NCBI GenBank assembly: GCA_013343275.1
Contig: CP046106.1
Coordinates: 256,001-320,000 of the forward strand
Source of the DNA: Candidatus Nanohaloarchaea archaeon
GTDB taxonomy: Archaea > Nanohalarchaeota > Nanosalinia > Nanosalinales > Nanosalinaceae
Length of the DNA stretch: 64,000 nt
Direction: 5' to 3'
Shown here: positions 2,991 to 10,037 of the stretch, in pieces
Layout: the number at the start of each line of letters is the position of its first letter
Numbering within the stretch: the first letter of the stretch is position 1
The notes under the pieces: generated by a model
What the model was told of the DNA's origin: nothing
Databases searched by the model: none
Seen by the model: only the letters and a program-made list of their open reading frames with translations
Translations under genes and position numbers: made by a program

Positions 2991-3063
2991 AGATCTCCAA
3001 AGCGGCAGATCCAGGGCCTGCAGTAATCTATTTATAGTTTCTTTTCCTACTGAATTAGTTGCC

Positions 3064-3657
3064 ATGAAAAAACTTGCAATAATTATGATGCTCGCACTGG
3101 CAATGAGCACTGCAGTCCTCGGGAATCCTGTTTTTACGGATCGAGGAGCTGAAGCCAGCAACCCACTGTACGAGGGAATCGGCGGTGGAGACTGTGACGA
3201 CACAGATCGATGTATAAAGCCTGGTCAGATCGCCCTGACTGTCCAGACATGGAATGATCCTGACAGCGACGGAGATGGGATCAGCGATCTAGCACTGGAA
3301 AGCACAGAGATGATTGGAACAAACAGAGGGCAGGTAATATCCGCAGTTAAGGCCAACAAAAACAAGTTCAAGGCTGGAGCAGAGCTCTCCAAAACAGTAA
3401 ACTCAATGGATGTAGGAGACCTTGACGGAGACGGATACCCTGACATAGTTGTCGGCATTGAAAGAAACGAAGAAACTGTAACAGTTACAGGAACAGGGGT
3501 CGACAAGAGATCAGCCAGAACAGGCCTCTACAAGGTTAACACGATGAACAAGGCCGAACTTATCGAGGCAATGGCCAGTGAAGCAGGCCTTTCCAAGGCC
3601 GACTCCAAGAAAGCTCTTGACGCAGTAGGAGAGATTATCCTGGGAGAGGACCGTTAA
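3064..3657 (+). CDS. secreted mosaic protein containing HU fragments and Ca/metal-binding motifs
   Basis: Signal peptide MKKLAIIMMLALAMSTAVLG; GDCDDTD, DSDGDGISD, GDLDGDGYPDIVVG; HU-like KFKAGAELSKTVN, KRSARTG and MNKAELIEAMASEAGLSKADSKKALDA. Confidence 0.75.
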   Translation: MKKLAIIMMLALAMSTAVLGNPVFTDRGAEASNPLYEGIGGGDCDDTDRCIKPGQIALTVQTWNDPDSDGDGISDLALESTEMIGTNRGQVISAVKANKNKFKAGAELSKTVNSMDVGDLDGDGYPDIVVGIERNEETVTVTGTGVDKRSARTGLYKVNTMNKAELIEAMASEAGLSKADSKKALDAVGEIILGEDR

Positions 3658-3713: not shown

Positions 3714-4625
3714 ATGAAAGTAGAGAAAGCAGTCAAACAGGTACTCGGCAGAGAACCAGAAAAAGTTGAAGAGATTGCCGAGGGATTGAAACATGATACC
3801 TATTGGGCAACGGTAGAAGGCAAGGATTACATAGTGCAGTTCTCCGGCGACGACTACGATGACCATGCATCCCTCAGACACTGCCTGAAGATGTACGAAC
3901 TTCTCTCAGACACCGTCAAAGTTCCACACGCAGCGACCAGTGAAGTCCAGGAACTTGATGGAGAAAGATACATCATAGTAGAAAAACTGGAAGGACAATC
4001 AGGAGAAAAAAGTATCTCGAAGGAGAAAACACGGAAAGCAGGGAAAGAACTGGCCAAGATCCACAACCACACAACACTCGACAAAGCAGGCTGGATAGAG
4101 TTCAGAGATGAAGGTTACGAAATAGTGGAGTTCGAGGAAGGAGGCCTGAAAGAACATTTCCTCACACAGCTTGAAGAAAAACTACAGATACTCAGGGATG
4201 AGGGCCTGGAAGAGCTCGCTGACAAAGTAGACAGTTTCATCGAGGAAAGAGAAGAAGTCTGGCCCGAAAACTTTACACCTGTGATCTGTCACGACGACTT
4301 CACACCCGACAACACCATCTACCTCAACGGAGAAGTCAACGGAATAATCGACATAGACTACGCATTCTCAGGCCTCGACGCACGTAACCTAGTAAAGGCC
4401 GCCAACGCATTCTGGATGAATGATCCTGTCAAAGACTGGCCTCGCGACAAGTTTTACCAAGGCTATTCTGAGGAAAGGCCTCTGCCTGAGAATTTTGATG
4501 AGTTAGAGAAGTTCTTCCGTGTAGAAACACTGGTCCAAACAGTGGCCTCACTGATTGATATGGATGTTTTGACGGAAGATCAAATAGAATTTTATGAGGA
4601 AGAAATTATGGAAGAGCTAGAATAA
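3714..4625 (+). CDS. aminoglycoside phosphotransferase/choline kinase-like protein
   Basis: Brenner-type motif CHDDFTPDN plus IIDID; LAKIH helix. Confidence 0.85.
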   Translation: MKVEKAVKQVLGREPEKVEEIAEGLKHDTYWATVEGKDYIVQFSGDDYDDHASLRHCLKMYELLSDTVKVPHAATSEVQELDGERYIIVEKLEGQSGEKSISKEKTRKAGKELAKIHNHTTLDKAGWIEFRDEGYEIVEFEEGGLKEHFLTQLEEKLQILRDEGLEELADKVDSFIEEREEVWPENFTPVICHDDFTPDNTIYLNGEVNGIIDIDYAFSGLDARNLVKAANAFWMNDPVKDWPRDKFYQGYSEERPLPENFDELEKFFRVETLVQTVASLIDMDVLTEDQIEFYEEEIMEELE

Positions 4626-4654
4626 TTACCGCTAGACAGTAACCTCTTCTGTCT

Positions 4655-5155
4655 TTAGAAGTTTACTGATTTTGATATAGTCTCAACTCGTCTTACTATT
4701 GCCATTAGAAGTAGAGAATAATGAATTAGGGTAGAAAATAGTACAAAAGAAAGTACTGTACTTGAATTGGTTACTTTTATCATTAAAATTATTCCTAGGA
4801 GCATAATAACCAAGAAAATACTGGTTGTAGTATAATATCTAAGACTCCTAAAAAATTGTTCAAAATTGTTCTCAAATTCGGCCCTATTTTTGTCTTCAGG
4901 GACGTTAAGATCTTCTAAACAAACTTTGTTAGTTAAGGAAAAAATAGCGTTGATGGAGAACCCTGCTACTATAGCTAGTGTTGTGCCTAGATAATTCAGA
5001 ACCTCTGACTTTAATTCAATAAAATGAGTCATTATTGCTCCTAAAATAACAGGAAGAACTATAAACCAAGAGATCAGATATAGATAACTCTCTTCATTTA
5101 TTATTTCTTGGTACGTGTTCTTGATATTAGATTTAGGCGATATAAAGCTGCTCAT
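4655..5155 (-). CDS. 4-TM membrane protein (candidate defence effector)
   Basis: Four hydrophobic stretches, AT-rich, ATGA overlap with the upstream gene. Confidence 0.7.
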   Translation of the reverse strand: MSSFISPKSNIKNTYQEIINEESYLYLISWFIVLPVILGAIMTHFIELKSEVLNYLGTTLAIVAGFSINAIFSLTNKVCLEDLNVPEDKNRAEFENNFEQFFRSLRYYTTTSIFLVIMLLGIILMIKVTNSSTVLSFVLFSTLIHYSLLLMAIVRRVETISKSVNF

Positions 5156-6135
5156 TCTTTTGAACTCGGGAAATTGGTAATTTTTTCATCCTGGTAAGAA
5201 CTTATTAAGTCTTCAATTAGATTCTCAGAGAATTTAGATAAACTTCCATCCCTAACTCTTCCTTTTGTAATTCTAACTTCAGGGTCGCTAGGTTTGAGTA
5301 TATCTACCATTTTAACTGCATCACCCTCATCTAGTGAAACTGTTCTTTCTGATCCTGATTCATTAACTACTGCTCCAACATCCAGAATATTAAAATCATA
5401 TGCTCTCGAGAAACCAATTTTTTCATCGTTGCGAATCTTATCTATTAAATCACTACAGGAGAAAAAACCTCCTCCAGGATCGGGTTTTATCTCTATAGTT
5501 TGTCTGGTAATTTCGCTAGGCCCTCTTTCATCATTTATTCTTTCTTCATGATTAAGATTGAGATCGGGTCCTTTTTCCGTCTCTAGTTTAAATCTCAGTA
5601 ATTCATCGGCTTTTCTCAACTGCCTAACTATATCCTTGGTAAAAAGACGGTTTACTTCAACTTTTACTTTATTGCTGCCAATAAAAGCAGAAAGTTTTCT
5701 TTCAAACTCTGTCTTCGCCCCCATCCCCTTAAACTGTTCCATCACTAACACTGCAGATTCTTTGGGCAGATTGTTTGATCTTGTAACCTGGAAAAAGAAA
5801 TCAATCTCCATAGAATCCTTGACTCCAACTGCATTTTCTTCTCTATTTTCGTTATCTATATTGAATCTGTCTTGTTCGTAACCCCATTCTCCTGTCCTAA
5901 TTCTACCTATGACATTTTTGTTAGACTTATGGAAGTATTTTGCCGAGAACGTCTTTTTCCGATCTTTATCGGCATCAGAGGCTCCCTTATAGTTCTCTAG
6001 GAACTCTGCCATGAAATCCTCAAATGAGTCATAAGCATACAACTCAGGTATATTGTTGGTCCTCTGTAGGTTATAATACCAGCCATTAGGTTCATGCAGC
6101 TTTATCTCATAGGGGACTATTTTATGGGTAGACAA
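5152..6135 (-). CDS. hypothetical soluble protein (candidate defence sensor)
   Basis: 327 aa, TTG start preceded by GAGGAG, AT-rich, not acidic like the host proteome; GRIRTGEWG motif. Confidence 0.7.
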   Translation of the reverse strand: MSTHKIVPYEIKLHEPNGWYYNLQRTNNIPELYAYDSFEDFMAEFLENYKGASDADKDRKKTFSAKYFHKSNKNVIGRIRTGEWGYEQDRFNIDNENREENAVGVKDSMEIDFFFQVTRSNNLPKESAVLVMEQFKGMGAKTEFERKLSAFIGSNKVKVEVNRLFTKDIVRQLRKADELLRFKLETEKGPDLNLNHEERINDERGPSEITRQTIEIKPDPGGGFFSCSDLIDKIRNDEKIGFSRAYDFNILDVGAVVNESGSERTVSLDEGDAVKMVDILKPSDPEVRITKGRVRDGSLSKFSENLIEDLISSYQDEKITNFPSSKE

Positions 6136-6615: not shown

Positions 6616-9558
6616 TCAACACTTGCTCCAGCCACAGTCTGGGCATTTCTTGCATCCTTCTTGGAGGACTAGCATTCCTCCGCAGTCTGGGCATTCTGGG
6701 TTGCCGCCGTCGCTGACGATGCTTGCTGCGTCTCCTTTGTCGGCCTGTTCTTCTGTCTCTGTCTTTGGCTGAGTCTGCCCTTTCTGCTGTGTTTTCTGGG
6801 CCTGTGTGTCGAACTGATCGACCGTTTGCTGGCTGCCTTCGTGGTTTTCCAGGTGGCGTTTCATGGCCTCTGCGATTGCGTCTGGTACTGAGTGAATCTG
6901 TGTTCCCTGGTCCCATGCGATCTGCGGTGAGCGGATGTCGTCAAGCTGTTTGATGACGTCCTCTCCTGATGCACCGCTTCTCAAGGCCAGCGAGGTCATT
7001 CTTCCGAGGGCCTGTGTGAAGGATTGTGTGTATCCTCCGGATTTGCCCAAGTTGGCGAATACCTCGAAAGGCCCGTTGTTTTCGCTATTGTTGATTGTGA
7101 CGAACAGGTCGCCGTAGGCTGTTTCTATTTCCTGTGTTGTTCCCTGTGCGACTTTCGGCCTTTCCTTAATTCCTTTCTTCTCGTCGCCCATGTGTGTGGA
7201 CTGGCCTGTGTCCTGTGTGTCGGCCTCGATACCTTCCTGAGTGACTTCCTGTGAAAGGTCTTCTGTGTCTTCTTCCTGTACTTTGAGGCCTGTGTCGCCG
7301 ACTACTTCCTGGAACTCGTTGGACTGGAGTAGGTCTTCTGCGCCTCCGAATTCATCGATGATCTCTGAGAGCATGTCGACTTTGTCCATGTCGGTGAGCT
7401 GGTTTTCCTTGTTGGTCTGCATGACTTGTGTTTCTCTTGTTCCATCTCTGTAGACTGTCATGCCTTTGACTCCTTTGTCGTAGGCTCTCATGTAGGCCTC
7501 TCTGACATCGTCCTTAGTTGCTTCGTTAGGGAAGTTGCAGGTCTTGCTGATTCCGGAGTGGTTGTGTTTCTGGAATGCTGCCTGGATATCGATGTGCTCT
7601 TTTGGTGAGACCTGATCTGCTGTTGCGAAAATCTCTTTGACGTCGGCCGGCAGAACATCATCAGGAATGGATTCTACTCCTTCCCATTCATTGTTCTCCA
7701 TCTTCTCCTGTGCAGCTCTCTTGACCTCCTCTACGTCGACGTCGTTGGCTTCCAGGGCTTTGATGAAGTAGTCGTCGAACTCGACGAGCATGTCTTCTCC
7801 CTGGATGTCCTTTGCGACGTTCTTGAAGTAGGCCAGTGAGTAGATTGGCTCGCATCCTCCACTGGTGTTTCCGATCATGGAGGTGGTTCCGGTTGGTGCG
7901 ATGGTTACCGTGTTGTGGTTTCTCATCTTGAGGCCGTCCTCGAACTCTTCTGGGTCGAGGCCTCCGGTGTACTGTCTGAACCATTCTTCGTACTCGGTTG
8001 GGTTGGCCCATTTGGATTTCTCCCATTCCGGGAATTCTCCACGGATTTCTGCCAGTCTGTTGGATTCTTCTATTGAGAACCTTGTGATCAGTCGCTGGAT
8101 TTCTTCTGCTGCGGCTACTGATTCGTCTGATCCGTATCTGATTCCTAGCTGGATCATCATCTGTGCGAATCCCATAAGTCCGAGACCGACTTTTCTGAGG
8201 TCTGTTACTGTTTCTTCGATCTCTTCGAGTGGGAAGTCGGACATGGTTACTACGTTGTCGAGGAATCGTAGGCCTGTCTTGGCTACGTACTCGAACTCCT
8301 CCATGTCTACTGCTTGCTGGATGTACTCCTGCATTGCGGCCTGTAGATCGGCCTCGTTCTCGAAATCGTAACGATCCTGATTCTGTTCCTTCCATTCAGG
8401 GAAGGATAGAGCTGTTCCATCACCCTGATCGTCTACAAGGAGCGATAGATTGATGTGGCCGAGGTTACAGGCCTCATAGTTCTCAAGCGGCTGCTCACCG
8501 CAAGGATTTGTCGCTTCGATTCGATGTTCTGGGTGTTTTTCGGTGTCGAAGCTGTGCATGTCGTTAGCTTCGTCATACATGAAGAGGCCTGGTTCTCCGT
8601 TTCTCCATGCTCCGTCGATCAAGGTTTCCCAGATGAATCTTGCTGGGAGTTTCATTTCTTCTCCTGGCTCTAGATGGATGTCGAACTCCTCTATTTCGTC
8701 GCCAAAGCTTGATGCGTGATCTCTCCAGAAGTTTTCGTCCTTACCCTGGTCTGATCCTTCTGCTTCAGGGTACCATTCTTCGTCTCTGTTGTAGAACTGC
8801 GCTGTCTCCTTTGCTACCTCGAAAGGTTCTCCGGTTCTCGGATTGGTTAAGGTGTATTCTTCGTCGTTCTTGACAGCCTCCATGAACTCTTCCGTCAGGC
8901 CGACTGAGATGTTGAAGTTGGAGAGGTTGCCTTCTTTTCTCTTTGATGTTATGAATCTGAGGACGTCAGGGTGGTCGATCTTCATGATTCCCATCTGTGC
9001 TCCTCTTCTCTTGCCTCCCTGCTTGATCGTTCCGCACATTGTGTCGAAGACCTGCTGGAAGCTTAGAGGGCCGGATGCGATTCCTCCTGTTGAGGAGACG
9101 ATATCTCCTTTCGGTCTCATGAGGTGGAATGGGTATCCCATGCCGCCTCCGGACTGGAAGATCTTTGCAGCGTCGTGAACTTTGTTAAAAATACTATCCA
9201 TGTCGTCTTCTGGATGTACGACGAAACATGCGGATAACTGCTGTAGATCTGCTCCAGCGTTCATCAGTGTCGGACTGTTCGGCATGAATTTCTGATGTGT
9301 CATCAGGTCGTAGAACTCTTCCCATGAGTCCTCGAAGTCTACATCATCGTAGTTTTTGTCTGGTTGTGCGACGTTCTTCGCTACCCGTTCAAACATGTCT
9401 TCAGGAGCCTCTACTACCTCGCCATCTTCATCTTTCAGAAGGTATCTGGCTGGTAGAATTCTCTCATAAGCGTTCTCTGTTAATCGCTCTTCGACGGTTT
9501 CTCCTTTGACTCTTTTGACAGGTAACGTGAAGTCTGACTTCTGTTCTAGTTTTGCCAT
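6616..9558 (-). CDS. nrdJ: adenosylcobalamin-dependent (class II) ribonucleotide reductase with TSCPD-like domain and C-terminal Zn ribbon
   Basis: [54 protein letters not shown] and terminal CPDCG...[12 protein letters not shown]. Confidence 0.97.
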
Positions 9559-9596
9559 GTTAACACCATAGTGGAATACAGGTTCGCAATCATGAT

Positions 9597-10037
9597 TTAG
9601 TCCTCTTTCAAGGCCTTAACTTCTTTCTGGAATGATTCAACGTCTTCGAATGAGTCGTATACCGAGGCAAATCTGATGTAGGCTACTTTGTCTCTTTTCT
9701 GGAGTTCTTCCTTGACTTTTTCTCCTATTTTCTCGGCCTCTATCTTTTTGCGGCCTCGCAGCATGCTTTTGACCTCTTCGACTATTTCTTCTACTTCTTC
9801 GTCGGTTATGGAGGTCTTGTTTGCTGCTCTTTCGACTCCGTTCCTTACTTTTTCTTCCTGGAATTTCTCGTTCTCTTTGTCTCTCTTGACTACCGTGAGT
9901 TCGAGTTTCTCGGCTGTTTCGTATGTTGTGAATCTTCTGCCGCAGTTTTTGCACTCTCGGCGTCTTCTTACTTTGTCTTCGGCTTCTCGTGTGTCGACTA
10001 CTCTTGTCGAGTTTTCCTCACAGTAGATGCATTTCAT
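9597..10037 (-). CDS. nrdR: transcriptional repressor NrdR
   Basis: MKCIYC...RRRREC..C..RFTTYE Zn ribbon, ATP cone, [10 protein letters not shown]. Confidence 0.97.

Follow-up and report, generated by a model that had tools for sequence, protein, structure and literature searches.

A nanohaloarchaeal mosaic protein with reordered HU segments, a calcium-loop repeat and an EF-Tu stump

Described systems that share parts with the mosaic protein

Proteins are usually regarded as being built from whole domains. The gene discussed here, an open reading frame (ORF) in a 64,000-nucleotide stretch of archaeal DNA, encodes a protein in which pieces of unrelated housekeeping proteins, each a third of a domain or less, are reused out of order. 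The stretch, referred to as the window, covers C1:256001-320000 of a genome that consists of a single contig of 915,886 bp. The homologs of the protein carry the names Candidatus Nanohaloarchaea, Ca. Nanohalovita haloferacivicina and Ca. Nanosalina, which places the source organism among the nanohaloarchaea, symbionts of haloarchaea with small genomes. A literature search (supplements were not covered) found no paper on this family, and haloarchaeal HUs were treated in a single paper, PMC5499826. Several described systems nevertheless resemble it in part and provide the background for its discussion.

The closest relatives of its HU segments are exported tandem HU proteins of haloarchaea of the P0026 and P0115 type (P-, L- and G-numbers are our handles for proteins, loci and genomes). 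These are about 240 amino acids (aa) long and match TAT_signal (E 5.9e-4), PF00216 twice and the HU-HIG family PF18291. Like the window protein, they combine an N-terminal export or anchor signal with about 200 aa that hold several HU-derived segments; the first of their HU units is without its C-terminal third, and the three window pieces are identical to P0026 at 45/49 residues. Unlike the window protein, they have their own twin-arginine signal, two ordered HU units, a full arm and no calcium loops. A passage in Burroughs et al. (2017; PMC5499826) reads the N-terminus of haloarchaeal HUs as a membrane helix that tethers the nucleoid. The same piece letters also occur in the housekeeping HUs of Bacteroidota (90 aa, 80 loci). 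The best of these 80 single-domain proteins agrees with the pieces at 41/49 residues (median 33), and piece C is matched at 12/13 in L023. In contrast to the window protein, these HUs are complete cytoplasmic DNA-bending proteins with the pieces contiguous and ordered.

The front half of the window protein resembles small secreted MopE + FG-GAP proteins of the ESM Atlas (about 225-250 aa), in which a Cys/Asp motif is followed by an FG-GAP calcium loop. Of the members of the top cluster of a language-model search (score 0.85, to be read as a lead only), 96% have PF01839 and 91% have PF11617, but no HU family is listed in the cluster entries.

A further parallel is provided by EF-Tu that moonlights at the cell surface. 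According to Widjaja et al. (2017; PMC5593925), EF-Tu fragments retain binding ability, and Table 2 of PMC4130151 gives residues 340-358 as a fibronectin-binding region of M. pneumoniae EF-Tu. The EF-Tu piece of the window family aligns to residues 336-360 of that protein and thus overlaps the adhesive region. The moonlighting EF-Tus are intact cytoplasmic proteins that undergo cleavage once they are at the cell surface, whereas here a piece of 10-25 aa is encoded in an archaeal exported protein.

Finally, variable exported proteins are produced by diversity-generating retroelements (DGRs), shufflons and cassette recombination of the mycoplasma type, and a DGR is present in this genome. Unlike in these systems, a pair of template and variable repeats (TR and VR), recombinase sites and silent copies were sought near the window gene and not found.

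Composition of the window protein

The initial annotation of this DNA described the ORF product as a secreted patchwork of short motifs of unrelated families, among them HU in reversed order. The patchwork is borne out by matches to HU, EF-Tu and FG-GAP (Table 1). With the haloarchaeal HU P0026 as the BLASTP reference, the protein gives three separate alignments in the order C-terminal, middle and N-terminal third (E 7e-5, 0.018 and 1e-13, respectively), which confirms the reversal. The strongest of the three places aa 154-188 on residues 34-68 of P0026 with 28/35 identities (E 1e-13). PF00216 is matched at aa 161-193 over positions 1-33 of its 90 (E 6.2e-6). When piece A is aligned by BLASTP to a 90-aa Flavobacteriales HU, the alignment begins at HU residue 1, and its profile matches in the PDB cover HU residues 1-37 (best E 1.9e-6). 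Piece C, conversely, terminates where HU terminates. Its core, KFKAGAELSKTVN (aa 101-113), is identical at 12/13 positions to the last 13 residues of the 90-aa Flavobacteriales HU, up to residue 90, and is found at 13/13 in P0056, P0048 and P0027. Piece C is present at 11/13 or better in 74/99 HU matches, and piece A at 22/27 or better also in 74/99. The HU-C motif was absent from all of 146 giant FG-GAP proteins (0/146), which sets it apart from ordinary FG-GAP sequence. Piece B is three residues shorter than its counterpart in HU; in P0005, it carries ISKRSARTGR, which agrees with HU at 9/10 (E 7e-4).

The databases (NCBI, JGI) name the homologs "HU family DNA-binding protein". This name is unjustified, and the protein falls outside the HU family. 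A contiguous HU/IHF unit of about 90 aa (PF00216) is not present, as only profile positions 1-33 are matched and the other pieces lie upstream in reversed order; nor is there an HU arm with an R-N-P tip, as piece B ends at ARTG, and the arm-tip pattern has 0 matches genome-wide. The protein is probably not a DNA-bending protein of the HU type. Names such as this one or "nucleoid DNA-binding protein" are misleading and could wrongly suggest HU-based DNA packaging in these archaea. A reading of the family as a collinear, diverged haloarchaeal tandem HU also found no support: hhalign of the family against the tandem-HU profile aligned piece A only, over 33 columns (probability 98.4). Elsewhere in the genome, PF00216 is matched more weakly by two further, unrelated ORFs (E 0.0077 and 0.158), read as an OB-fold protein and a ribosomal protein.

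The last ten residues, which directly follow the HU helix α2, had escaped the initial annotation. Their identity is given by the longer tails of homologs. The tail of P0010 matches EF-Tu in 52/54 PDB matches, aligned to EF-Tu 332-356 (best E 8.3e-4), and that of P0021 in 5/5, as three pieces of which one is out of order. These matches lead to the conclusion that VGEIILGEDR is an EF-Tu stump joined to HU α2. EF-Tu was also used elsewhere in the family, as the N-terminal insert of P0010 and P0018 corresponds to EF-Tu 271-313 in 27/27 PDB matches; the latter result rules out an identification of the P0010 insert as Hcp, the tube protein of the type VI secretion system. The same guess for the IDKASPK cassette yielded no Hcp match and three unrelated ones.

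The middle of the protein is one genuine FG-GAP/VCBS repeat between two calcium-type loops of the form DxDxDG (aa 63-75 and aa 117-127), as follows from the Pfam matches together with an exhaustive HMMER search. The FG-GAP motif named in the initial annotation was recovered by Pfam at aa 113-131 (PF01839, E 7.5e-8) and is matched by 25/25 members of the family alignment A1, which comprises the window protein and 24 full-length homologs and to which all family counts refer. At E<=1e-3, the HMMER search with aa 21-160 retrieved 4613 proteins. Among the 150 matches listed, many are giant proteins with 10-40 repeats, and their best stretches correspond to query positions from about 47 to 110-121, which is to say aa 67 to about 130-141 of the protein. 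A propeller of about seven repeats was found neither in the structure model discussed below nor among its Foldseek matches, and with one full repeat the window protein is unable to form a propeller alone.

Other labels of the initial annotation are weak or lack support. The TonB-box-like label for EETVTVTG found no support, and archaea are not known to have an outer membrane or TonB. For the motifs called TSP3-like and MopE-like, the profile matches to the window protein are weak or unlisted: TSP3_bac gives E 2.9 (0.0043 in one homolog), and MopE (PF11617) is unlisted at E<=10 and matched by 3/25 family members at E<=1, the best at 0.001 and below the 27-bit cut-off. The NPVF...NPLYEG segment is kept across the alignment, but without any secure match. 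Aa 23-61 (window 3130-3246) weakly resemble the α subunit of cryptophyte phycobiliprotein (4lms_A, E 0.31), and the same residues of P0013 match PF02972 (Phycoerythr_ab) at E 0.017, below the cut-off; this unexplained lead may be due to chance.

The first 20 residues, read by eye, have a basic charge, a hydrophobic run and an end of small residues, and residues 2-19 are helical in the structure model. These features suggest that the product of the ORF is exported through a Sec-type signal. The signal has no RR, so it differs from the twin-arginine signal of the haloarchaeal tandem HUs.

Table 1. Features of the mosaic gene and of the retroelement in the same genome. Positions refer to the window, except for the retroelement, which is given in coordinates of contig C1 or of locus L002.
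Feature	Position	Strand	Basis or remark
TATA-like A/T-rich box, atttatagtt	3030..3039	+	Read directly from the sequence; about 28 bp before ATG
ORF, putatively exported mosaic protein	3064..3657	+	197 aa + stop; 24 full-length homologs, 52-73% identity; single copy
Putative Sec-type signal peptide, aa 1-20	3064..3123	+	Sequence features; column conservation 0.78
Mature N-terminus (NPVF..NPLYEG), then Cys/Asp-rich MopE-like motif, aa 21-54	3124..3225	+	Family alignment of 25
One complete FG-GAP/VCBS-type repeat, aa 67-130	3262..3453	+	Pfam FG-GAP_3 (PF13517), positions 1-61/61, E 6.5e-6
HU piece C, aa 89-113 (end of β3 + α3)	3328..3402	+	BLASTP 15/25 to P0026 223-247, E 7e-5
HU piece B, aa 139-154 (β1-β2 to arm base)	3478..3525	+	BLASTP 11/19 to P0026 82-100, E 0.018
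HU piece A, aa 161-188 (α1-α2, from the initial Met of HU)	3544..3627	+	Pfam PF00216; 26/27 to P0026
EF-Tu domain-3 stump VGEIILGEDR, aa 188-197	3625..3654	+	Longer tails in homologs; ended by stop codon
DGR (VR, Avd, TR, reverse transcriptase)	G000:C1:208419-210690 (locus L002)		Outside the window, about 49 kb upstream of the gene
DGR variable repeat (VR)	208419-208534
DGR bAvd-like gene	L002:608-949		Pfam E 2.2e-22
DGR template repeat (TR)	209373-209488
DGR reverse transcriptase, 331 aa	L002:1288-2283		E 6.2e-25

Conservation and inheritance of the family

The motif order is identical in 25/25 family members. Column conservation is highest in HU-C (0.85), amounts to 0.74-0.78 in the calcium loops and 0.76 in HU-A, and is only 0.41-0.45 in the spacers. 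This pattern is the reverse of the scaffold with variable, library-filled loops that was originally proposed. Moreover, codon pairs in four genomic copies were counted as identical, synonymous and replacement pairs, with 77/59/32 in HU-A, 65/43/39 in HU-C and 22/29/3 in the EF-Tu tail. Such counts are a sign that the borrowed pieces are selected as protein and not as DNA.

The gene is found in 6/70 genomes of the phylum and in 5/32 genera, all of one family. Of the six genomic copies, four are intact, a fifth is broken by an in-frame TGA where its contig ends, and the sixth is fragmentary. In G000 (the genome of the window), G046, G053 and G058, the intact copy and a gene for a class II ribonucleotide reductase are a few kb apart at most, and in G053 both genes flanking the homolog are kept as well. 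Given its distribution in one family and its fixed place near the ribonucleotide reductase gene, the gene is old and mostly vertically inherited, with losses. The patchwork was assembled before the split of at least four genera. A search of viral contigs gave 166 pattern matches, none of them a relative.

A decayed copy lies at L015:4777-5138 (G034). It consists of a 54-aa ORF with a GDLDGDG loop and of HU-A in another frame 66 bp downstream, and it has neither a signal peptide nor the front half.

Proposed origin and role

The reading that we consider probable, though well short of certain, is that of an old, vertically kept, exported mosaic protein that stands on a calcium-loop repeat, acts as an adhesin or mimic and is served by no shuffling machinery. 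The scaffold would be the calcium-loop FG-GAP/VCBS-type repeat in a small Sec-exported protein of one nanohaloarchaeal family, into which short fragments of foreign, highly conserved proteins would have been spliced in frame. The HU source would be of the Bacteroidota/haloarchaeal type, inserted in the order C-terminal, middle and N-terminal third, and the tail would derive from domain 3 of a bacterial EF-Tu. The gene changes only slowly, through occasional replacement, gain or loss of whole cassettes and recombination between family members.

Calcium-loop repeats are typical of adhesins, and both HU and EF-Tu are known as sticky surface proteins in bacteria. The FG-GAP and TSP3-type loops of the window protein provide a lead in the same direction. 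To judge from the kinds of motif in the protein, it might be an extracellular adhesin that operates where symbiont and host meet, with the borrowed pieces as its binding surfaces. The pieces possibly imitate the exported tandem HU of the host lineage, or exploit the stickiness that surface HU and EF-Tu fragments have. We propose that the protein is an adhesin or imitates the exported HU of the host; of these ideas imitation is the most specific, since the HU letters come nearest to a protein that the host lineage exports. Should the pieces act as binding epitopes, the protein would be a candidate for nanohaloarchaeal host contact and a natural example of peptide grafting. Pieces kept nearly unchanged by selection are found in an exported protein of an obligate symbiont.

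Several points weigh against this proposal. The function is read from the kinds of motif alone, and the fibronectin parallel was drawn from bacteria that infect animals and may have no bearing on life in brine. Piece B is dispensable, being replaced in 4/25 members, which weakens a strict mimicry by three pieces. BLASTP also yields a second alignment, in which aa 87-154 run collinear with residues 2-60 of HU (E 3e-4); aa 87-97 may thus be a decayed α1, and the "reversal" may stem in part from decayed tandem HU copies. The AlphaFold2 (AF2) model computed with the 25-row alignment is mediocre, with a mean predicted local distance difference test score (pLDDT) of 67 and a predicted template modeling score (pTM) of 0.61. 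A Foldseek comparison of this model with the PDB yielded 728 matches at E<=10, of which 0 reached E<=0.001; the best had E 0.071 and a TM score of 0.19. With a mediocre model and no matching fold, the exposure of the pieces at the surface is conjectural. Finally, the backbone of the tree built from the conserved core is weak (10/22 forks are open), and the number of independent tail replacements is therefore uncertain.

Cassette turnover and reuse in other proteins

Within the family, the stretch before the first calcium loop occurs in alternative forms, namely the Cys/Asp motif, CCFDY, an EF-Tu piece and a tube piece. Likewise, the tails alternate between a continued HU α2 and the EF-Tu piece, and their lengths vary. 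In the conserved-core tree, the CCFDY form makes up one clade (7 rows, support 99/94), as does the form in which other sequence stands in the place of piece B (4 rows, 100/100). The tube+MopE insert, on the other hand, occurs in P0015 and P0023, which are not sisters. It resembles the tube of contractile tails: Phage_T4_gp19 is matched at E 0.0046, which misses the cut-off, and 7aeb_Y at E 1.2 over 47 residues. P0018 is a recombinant, with a front that agrees with P0010 (20/20 and 36/42), a middle that agrees with P0012 (41/51) and a tail that agrees with P0006 (16/21).

The same cassettes recur in other orders in other proteins, which is in line with the initial annotation. A search for longer proteins gave 19 matches among 4134 candidates and led to two further architectures. 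The first, A2, is a mosaic family of about 500 aa with 9 sequences. Its order is NP(L/I/M)(Y/F)E, HU-B with a full arm that includes the R-N-P tip, GDCDD, DPDSDGDG and HU-A, followed by LDKSSPY or CCFDY, a coiled coil, VRKKPGR, DSDGDG and RRPGF...GSIFG. With the window family it shares the cassettes HU-B, HU-A, GDCDD, DPDSDGDG, CCFDY and VRKKPGR. A metagenome scan with the A2 alignment led to L102 and L103, while a scan with P0135 alone found nothing, and no full-length A2 copy was found in the 70 reference genomes. The family is nanohaloarchaeal, since the neighbors at L102 are 58-66% identical to proteins of G000.

The second architecture is that of the bacterial lipoproteins P0121 (named Izemoplasmataceae), P0122 and P0123, of 613-841 aa. 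They contain 2-3 copies of a repeat of about 115 aa with DDDCDG, KFKAGAELSK, a DPDSDGDG loop and GHVTVLK; this repeat is identical to the window protein at 22/37 positions (E 1e-8). The HU C-terminal motif is thus reused as a repeat element in bacteria too. Both architectures differ from the window protein in the order, number and surroundings of the cassettes, and A2 in addition has the coiled coil and the RRPGF...GSIFG element.

These occurrences allow a wider reading, which we regard as tentative and on the whole doubtful. The window protein may belong to an unrecognized "collage" class of exported proteins of small-genome brine dwellers, made from fragments of 9-45 aa of abundant, conserved foreign proteins. 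The class may include the two Nanohaloarchaeota families and the Izemoplasmataceae lipoproteins, with HU, EF-Tu and the contractile-tail tube as donors amid calcium loops. The fragments may be held near letter-perfect by selection and traded between families by recombination. If this were true, such proteins would carry mimics, decoys or universal sticky patches made of conserved peptides of foreign or host origin, and the preference for highly expressed donors would suggest that gene fragments are captured by some unknown route.

The C-terminal tag RR-(P/R)-G-(F/I)...GSI(F/L)G of A2 is also found in the product of L019:478-1743 (G029), an unrelated secreted coiled-coil protein of 421 aa from another nanohaloarchaeon. 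The tag possibly serves as an anchor or a sorting signal particular to the lineage.

A working HU or a relic?

One can also ask whether the pieces still make up an HU. In this scenario, decayed tandem copies would each have kept one third, and the thirds would pack into an armless, HU-like exported binder of nucleic acids, with extracellular DNA as an example of a target. In favor of this, the borders of the pieces coincide with natural module borders of HU, namely the HU start, the α2/β1 turn, the arm and the HU end. Moreover, the nearest relatives are the exported tandem HUs of about 240 aa with their incomplete first unit and the order B-linker-A, most of the basic residues sit in the pieces, and the pieces are under purifying selection. 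However, piece B does not have the GFGSF core letters, the RNPQTG arm tip is absent, and other sequence takes the place of piece B in the clade mentioned above. In the AF2 model, aa 88-96 are helical and block means of pLDDT fall below 50 for aa 99-112, compared with 74-90 for aa 111-190. Only piece A is aligned by hhalign to the tandem-HU profile, and of the two helix pairs in the tandem HU this piece is nearer to the first (E 1e-13) than to the second (E 1e-5). Taken together, a scrambled but functional HU is unlikely.

Still less likely is that the protein is neutral wreckage, the fused relic of broken genes whose pieces have no role of their own. The patchy occurrence of the gene, its one fragmentary and one interrupted copy, and tails of variable length that look truncated would fit such an origin. 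Yet the excess of synonymous over replacement pairs is found exactly in the pieces, F102-S109 is invariant in 25 sequences that share only 52-73% identity overall, and the place of the gene is kept across genera. These features speak against a relic.

Search for a shuffling mechanism

The initial annotation also suggested that a micro-cassette shuffling or diversification mechanism generated the protein. In its strict form, a dedicated mechanism would swap cassettes of 7-30 aa from a library. The presence of the same cassettes at other positions in other families and members, the recombinant P0018 and the occurrence of a reverse transcriptase in the genome are in keeping with this suggestion. 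However, the gene is single-copy, and no second copy of any cassette was found in the six frames of the 916-kb genome. No repeats flank the borrowed pieces. Integrase-like matches in the genome were confined to 123.9 kb and, with a weak match, to 245.4 kb, and the nearest one, 13.6 kb from the gene, is below the family cut-off. Shufflon-type or silent-copy recombination of cassettes is therefore without the extra copies, border repeats or nearby recombinase that it would involve.

Nor is there a linked reverse transcriptase. The genome has a single one, and this is part of a DGR that lies at about 208.4-210.7 kb and is complete with Avd, TR and a VR of its own. Of the mismatches between TR and VR, 17/18 are at TR adenines. 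The genome's TR matches only at the VR itself, 50 kb from the gene, and the window gene is thus not a target of this DGR. Furthermore, the G+C content of the pieces (0.47-0.52) is close to that of the gene (0.49) and the window (0.47). A recent transfer from a GC-rich host has no support, as the pieces have the base composition of the genome, unlike that of the haloarchaeal host.

An active diversification mechanism in this genome is unlikely because the order is fixed, the gene is single-copy, repeats are absent, the reverse transcriptase is unlinked and the base composition is not foreign. Added to this are the observations that the cassettes are the conserved parts and that the four genomic copies differ by ordinary substitutions. 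The dedicated swapping of library cassettes is accordingly highly improbable as an explanation and largely refuted for this genome, in which no cassette-shuffling machinery appears to operate. What remains of the original suggestion is the reuse of cassettes in other orders and the recombination seen in P0018. Of the refutation that the initial annotation set itself, one half holds: 24/24 full-length homologs are collinear, and the cassettes are reused in other proteins. The mosaicism is genuine over evolutionary time.

The least tenable explanation, with a negligible likelihood, is chance resemblance or an assembly chimera: several of the initial labels do rest on 5-8 residues (TonB box, NPLYE) and the Hcp guess for another cassette failed, but for the HU and EF-Tu pieces chance is refuted by pairwise E-values of 1e-13, 7e-5 and 2e-5, and a chimera by the presence of the gene in three single-contig genomes of about 0.9-1.05 Mb.

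Genomic surroundings of the gene

The A/T-rich box upstream of the ORF (Table 1) is called TATA-like on the basis of the archaeal TATA consensus; a sigma-70 scan is not applicable to archaea. At window 6616-10037, the minus strand encodes the class II ribonucleotide reductase, a protein of 979 aa that includes a TSCPD domain, next to an NrdR-like repressor. The reductase is 84-93% identical in relatives and anchors the conserved neighborhood. Window 4500-6100 is a low-GC island (GC 0.33 vs 0.47 for the window) with minus-strand ORFs at 4655..5155 and 5152..6135; one of them is without a Pfam family at E<=0.01, and for the other DUF4064 is the sole match, below the cut-off. The island may be a recent insertion between a kinase gene and the ribonucleotide reductase gene.

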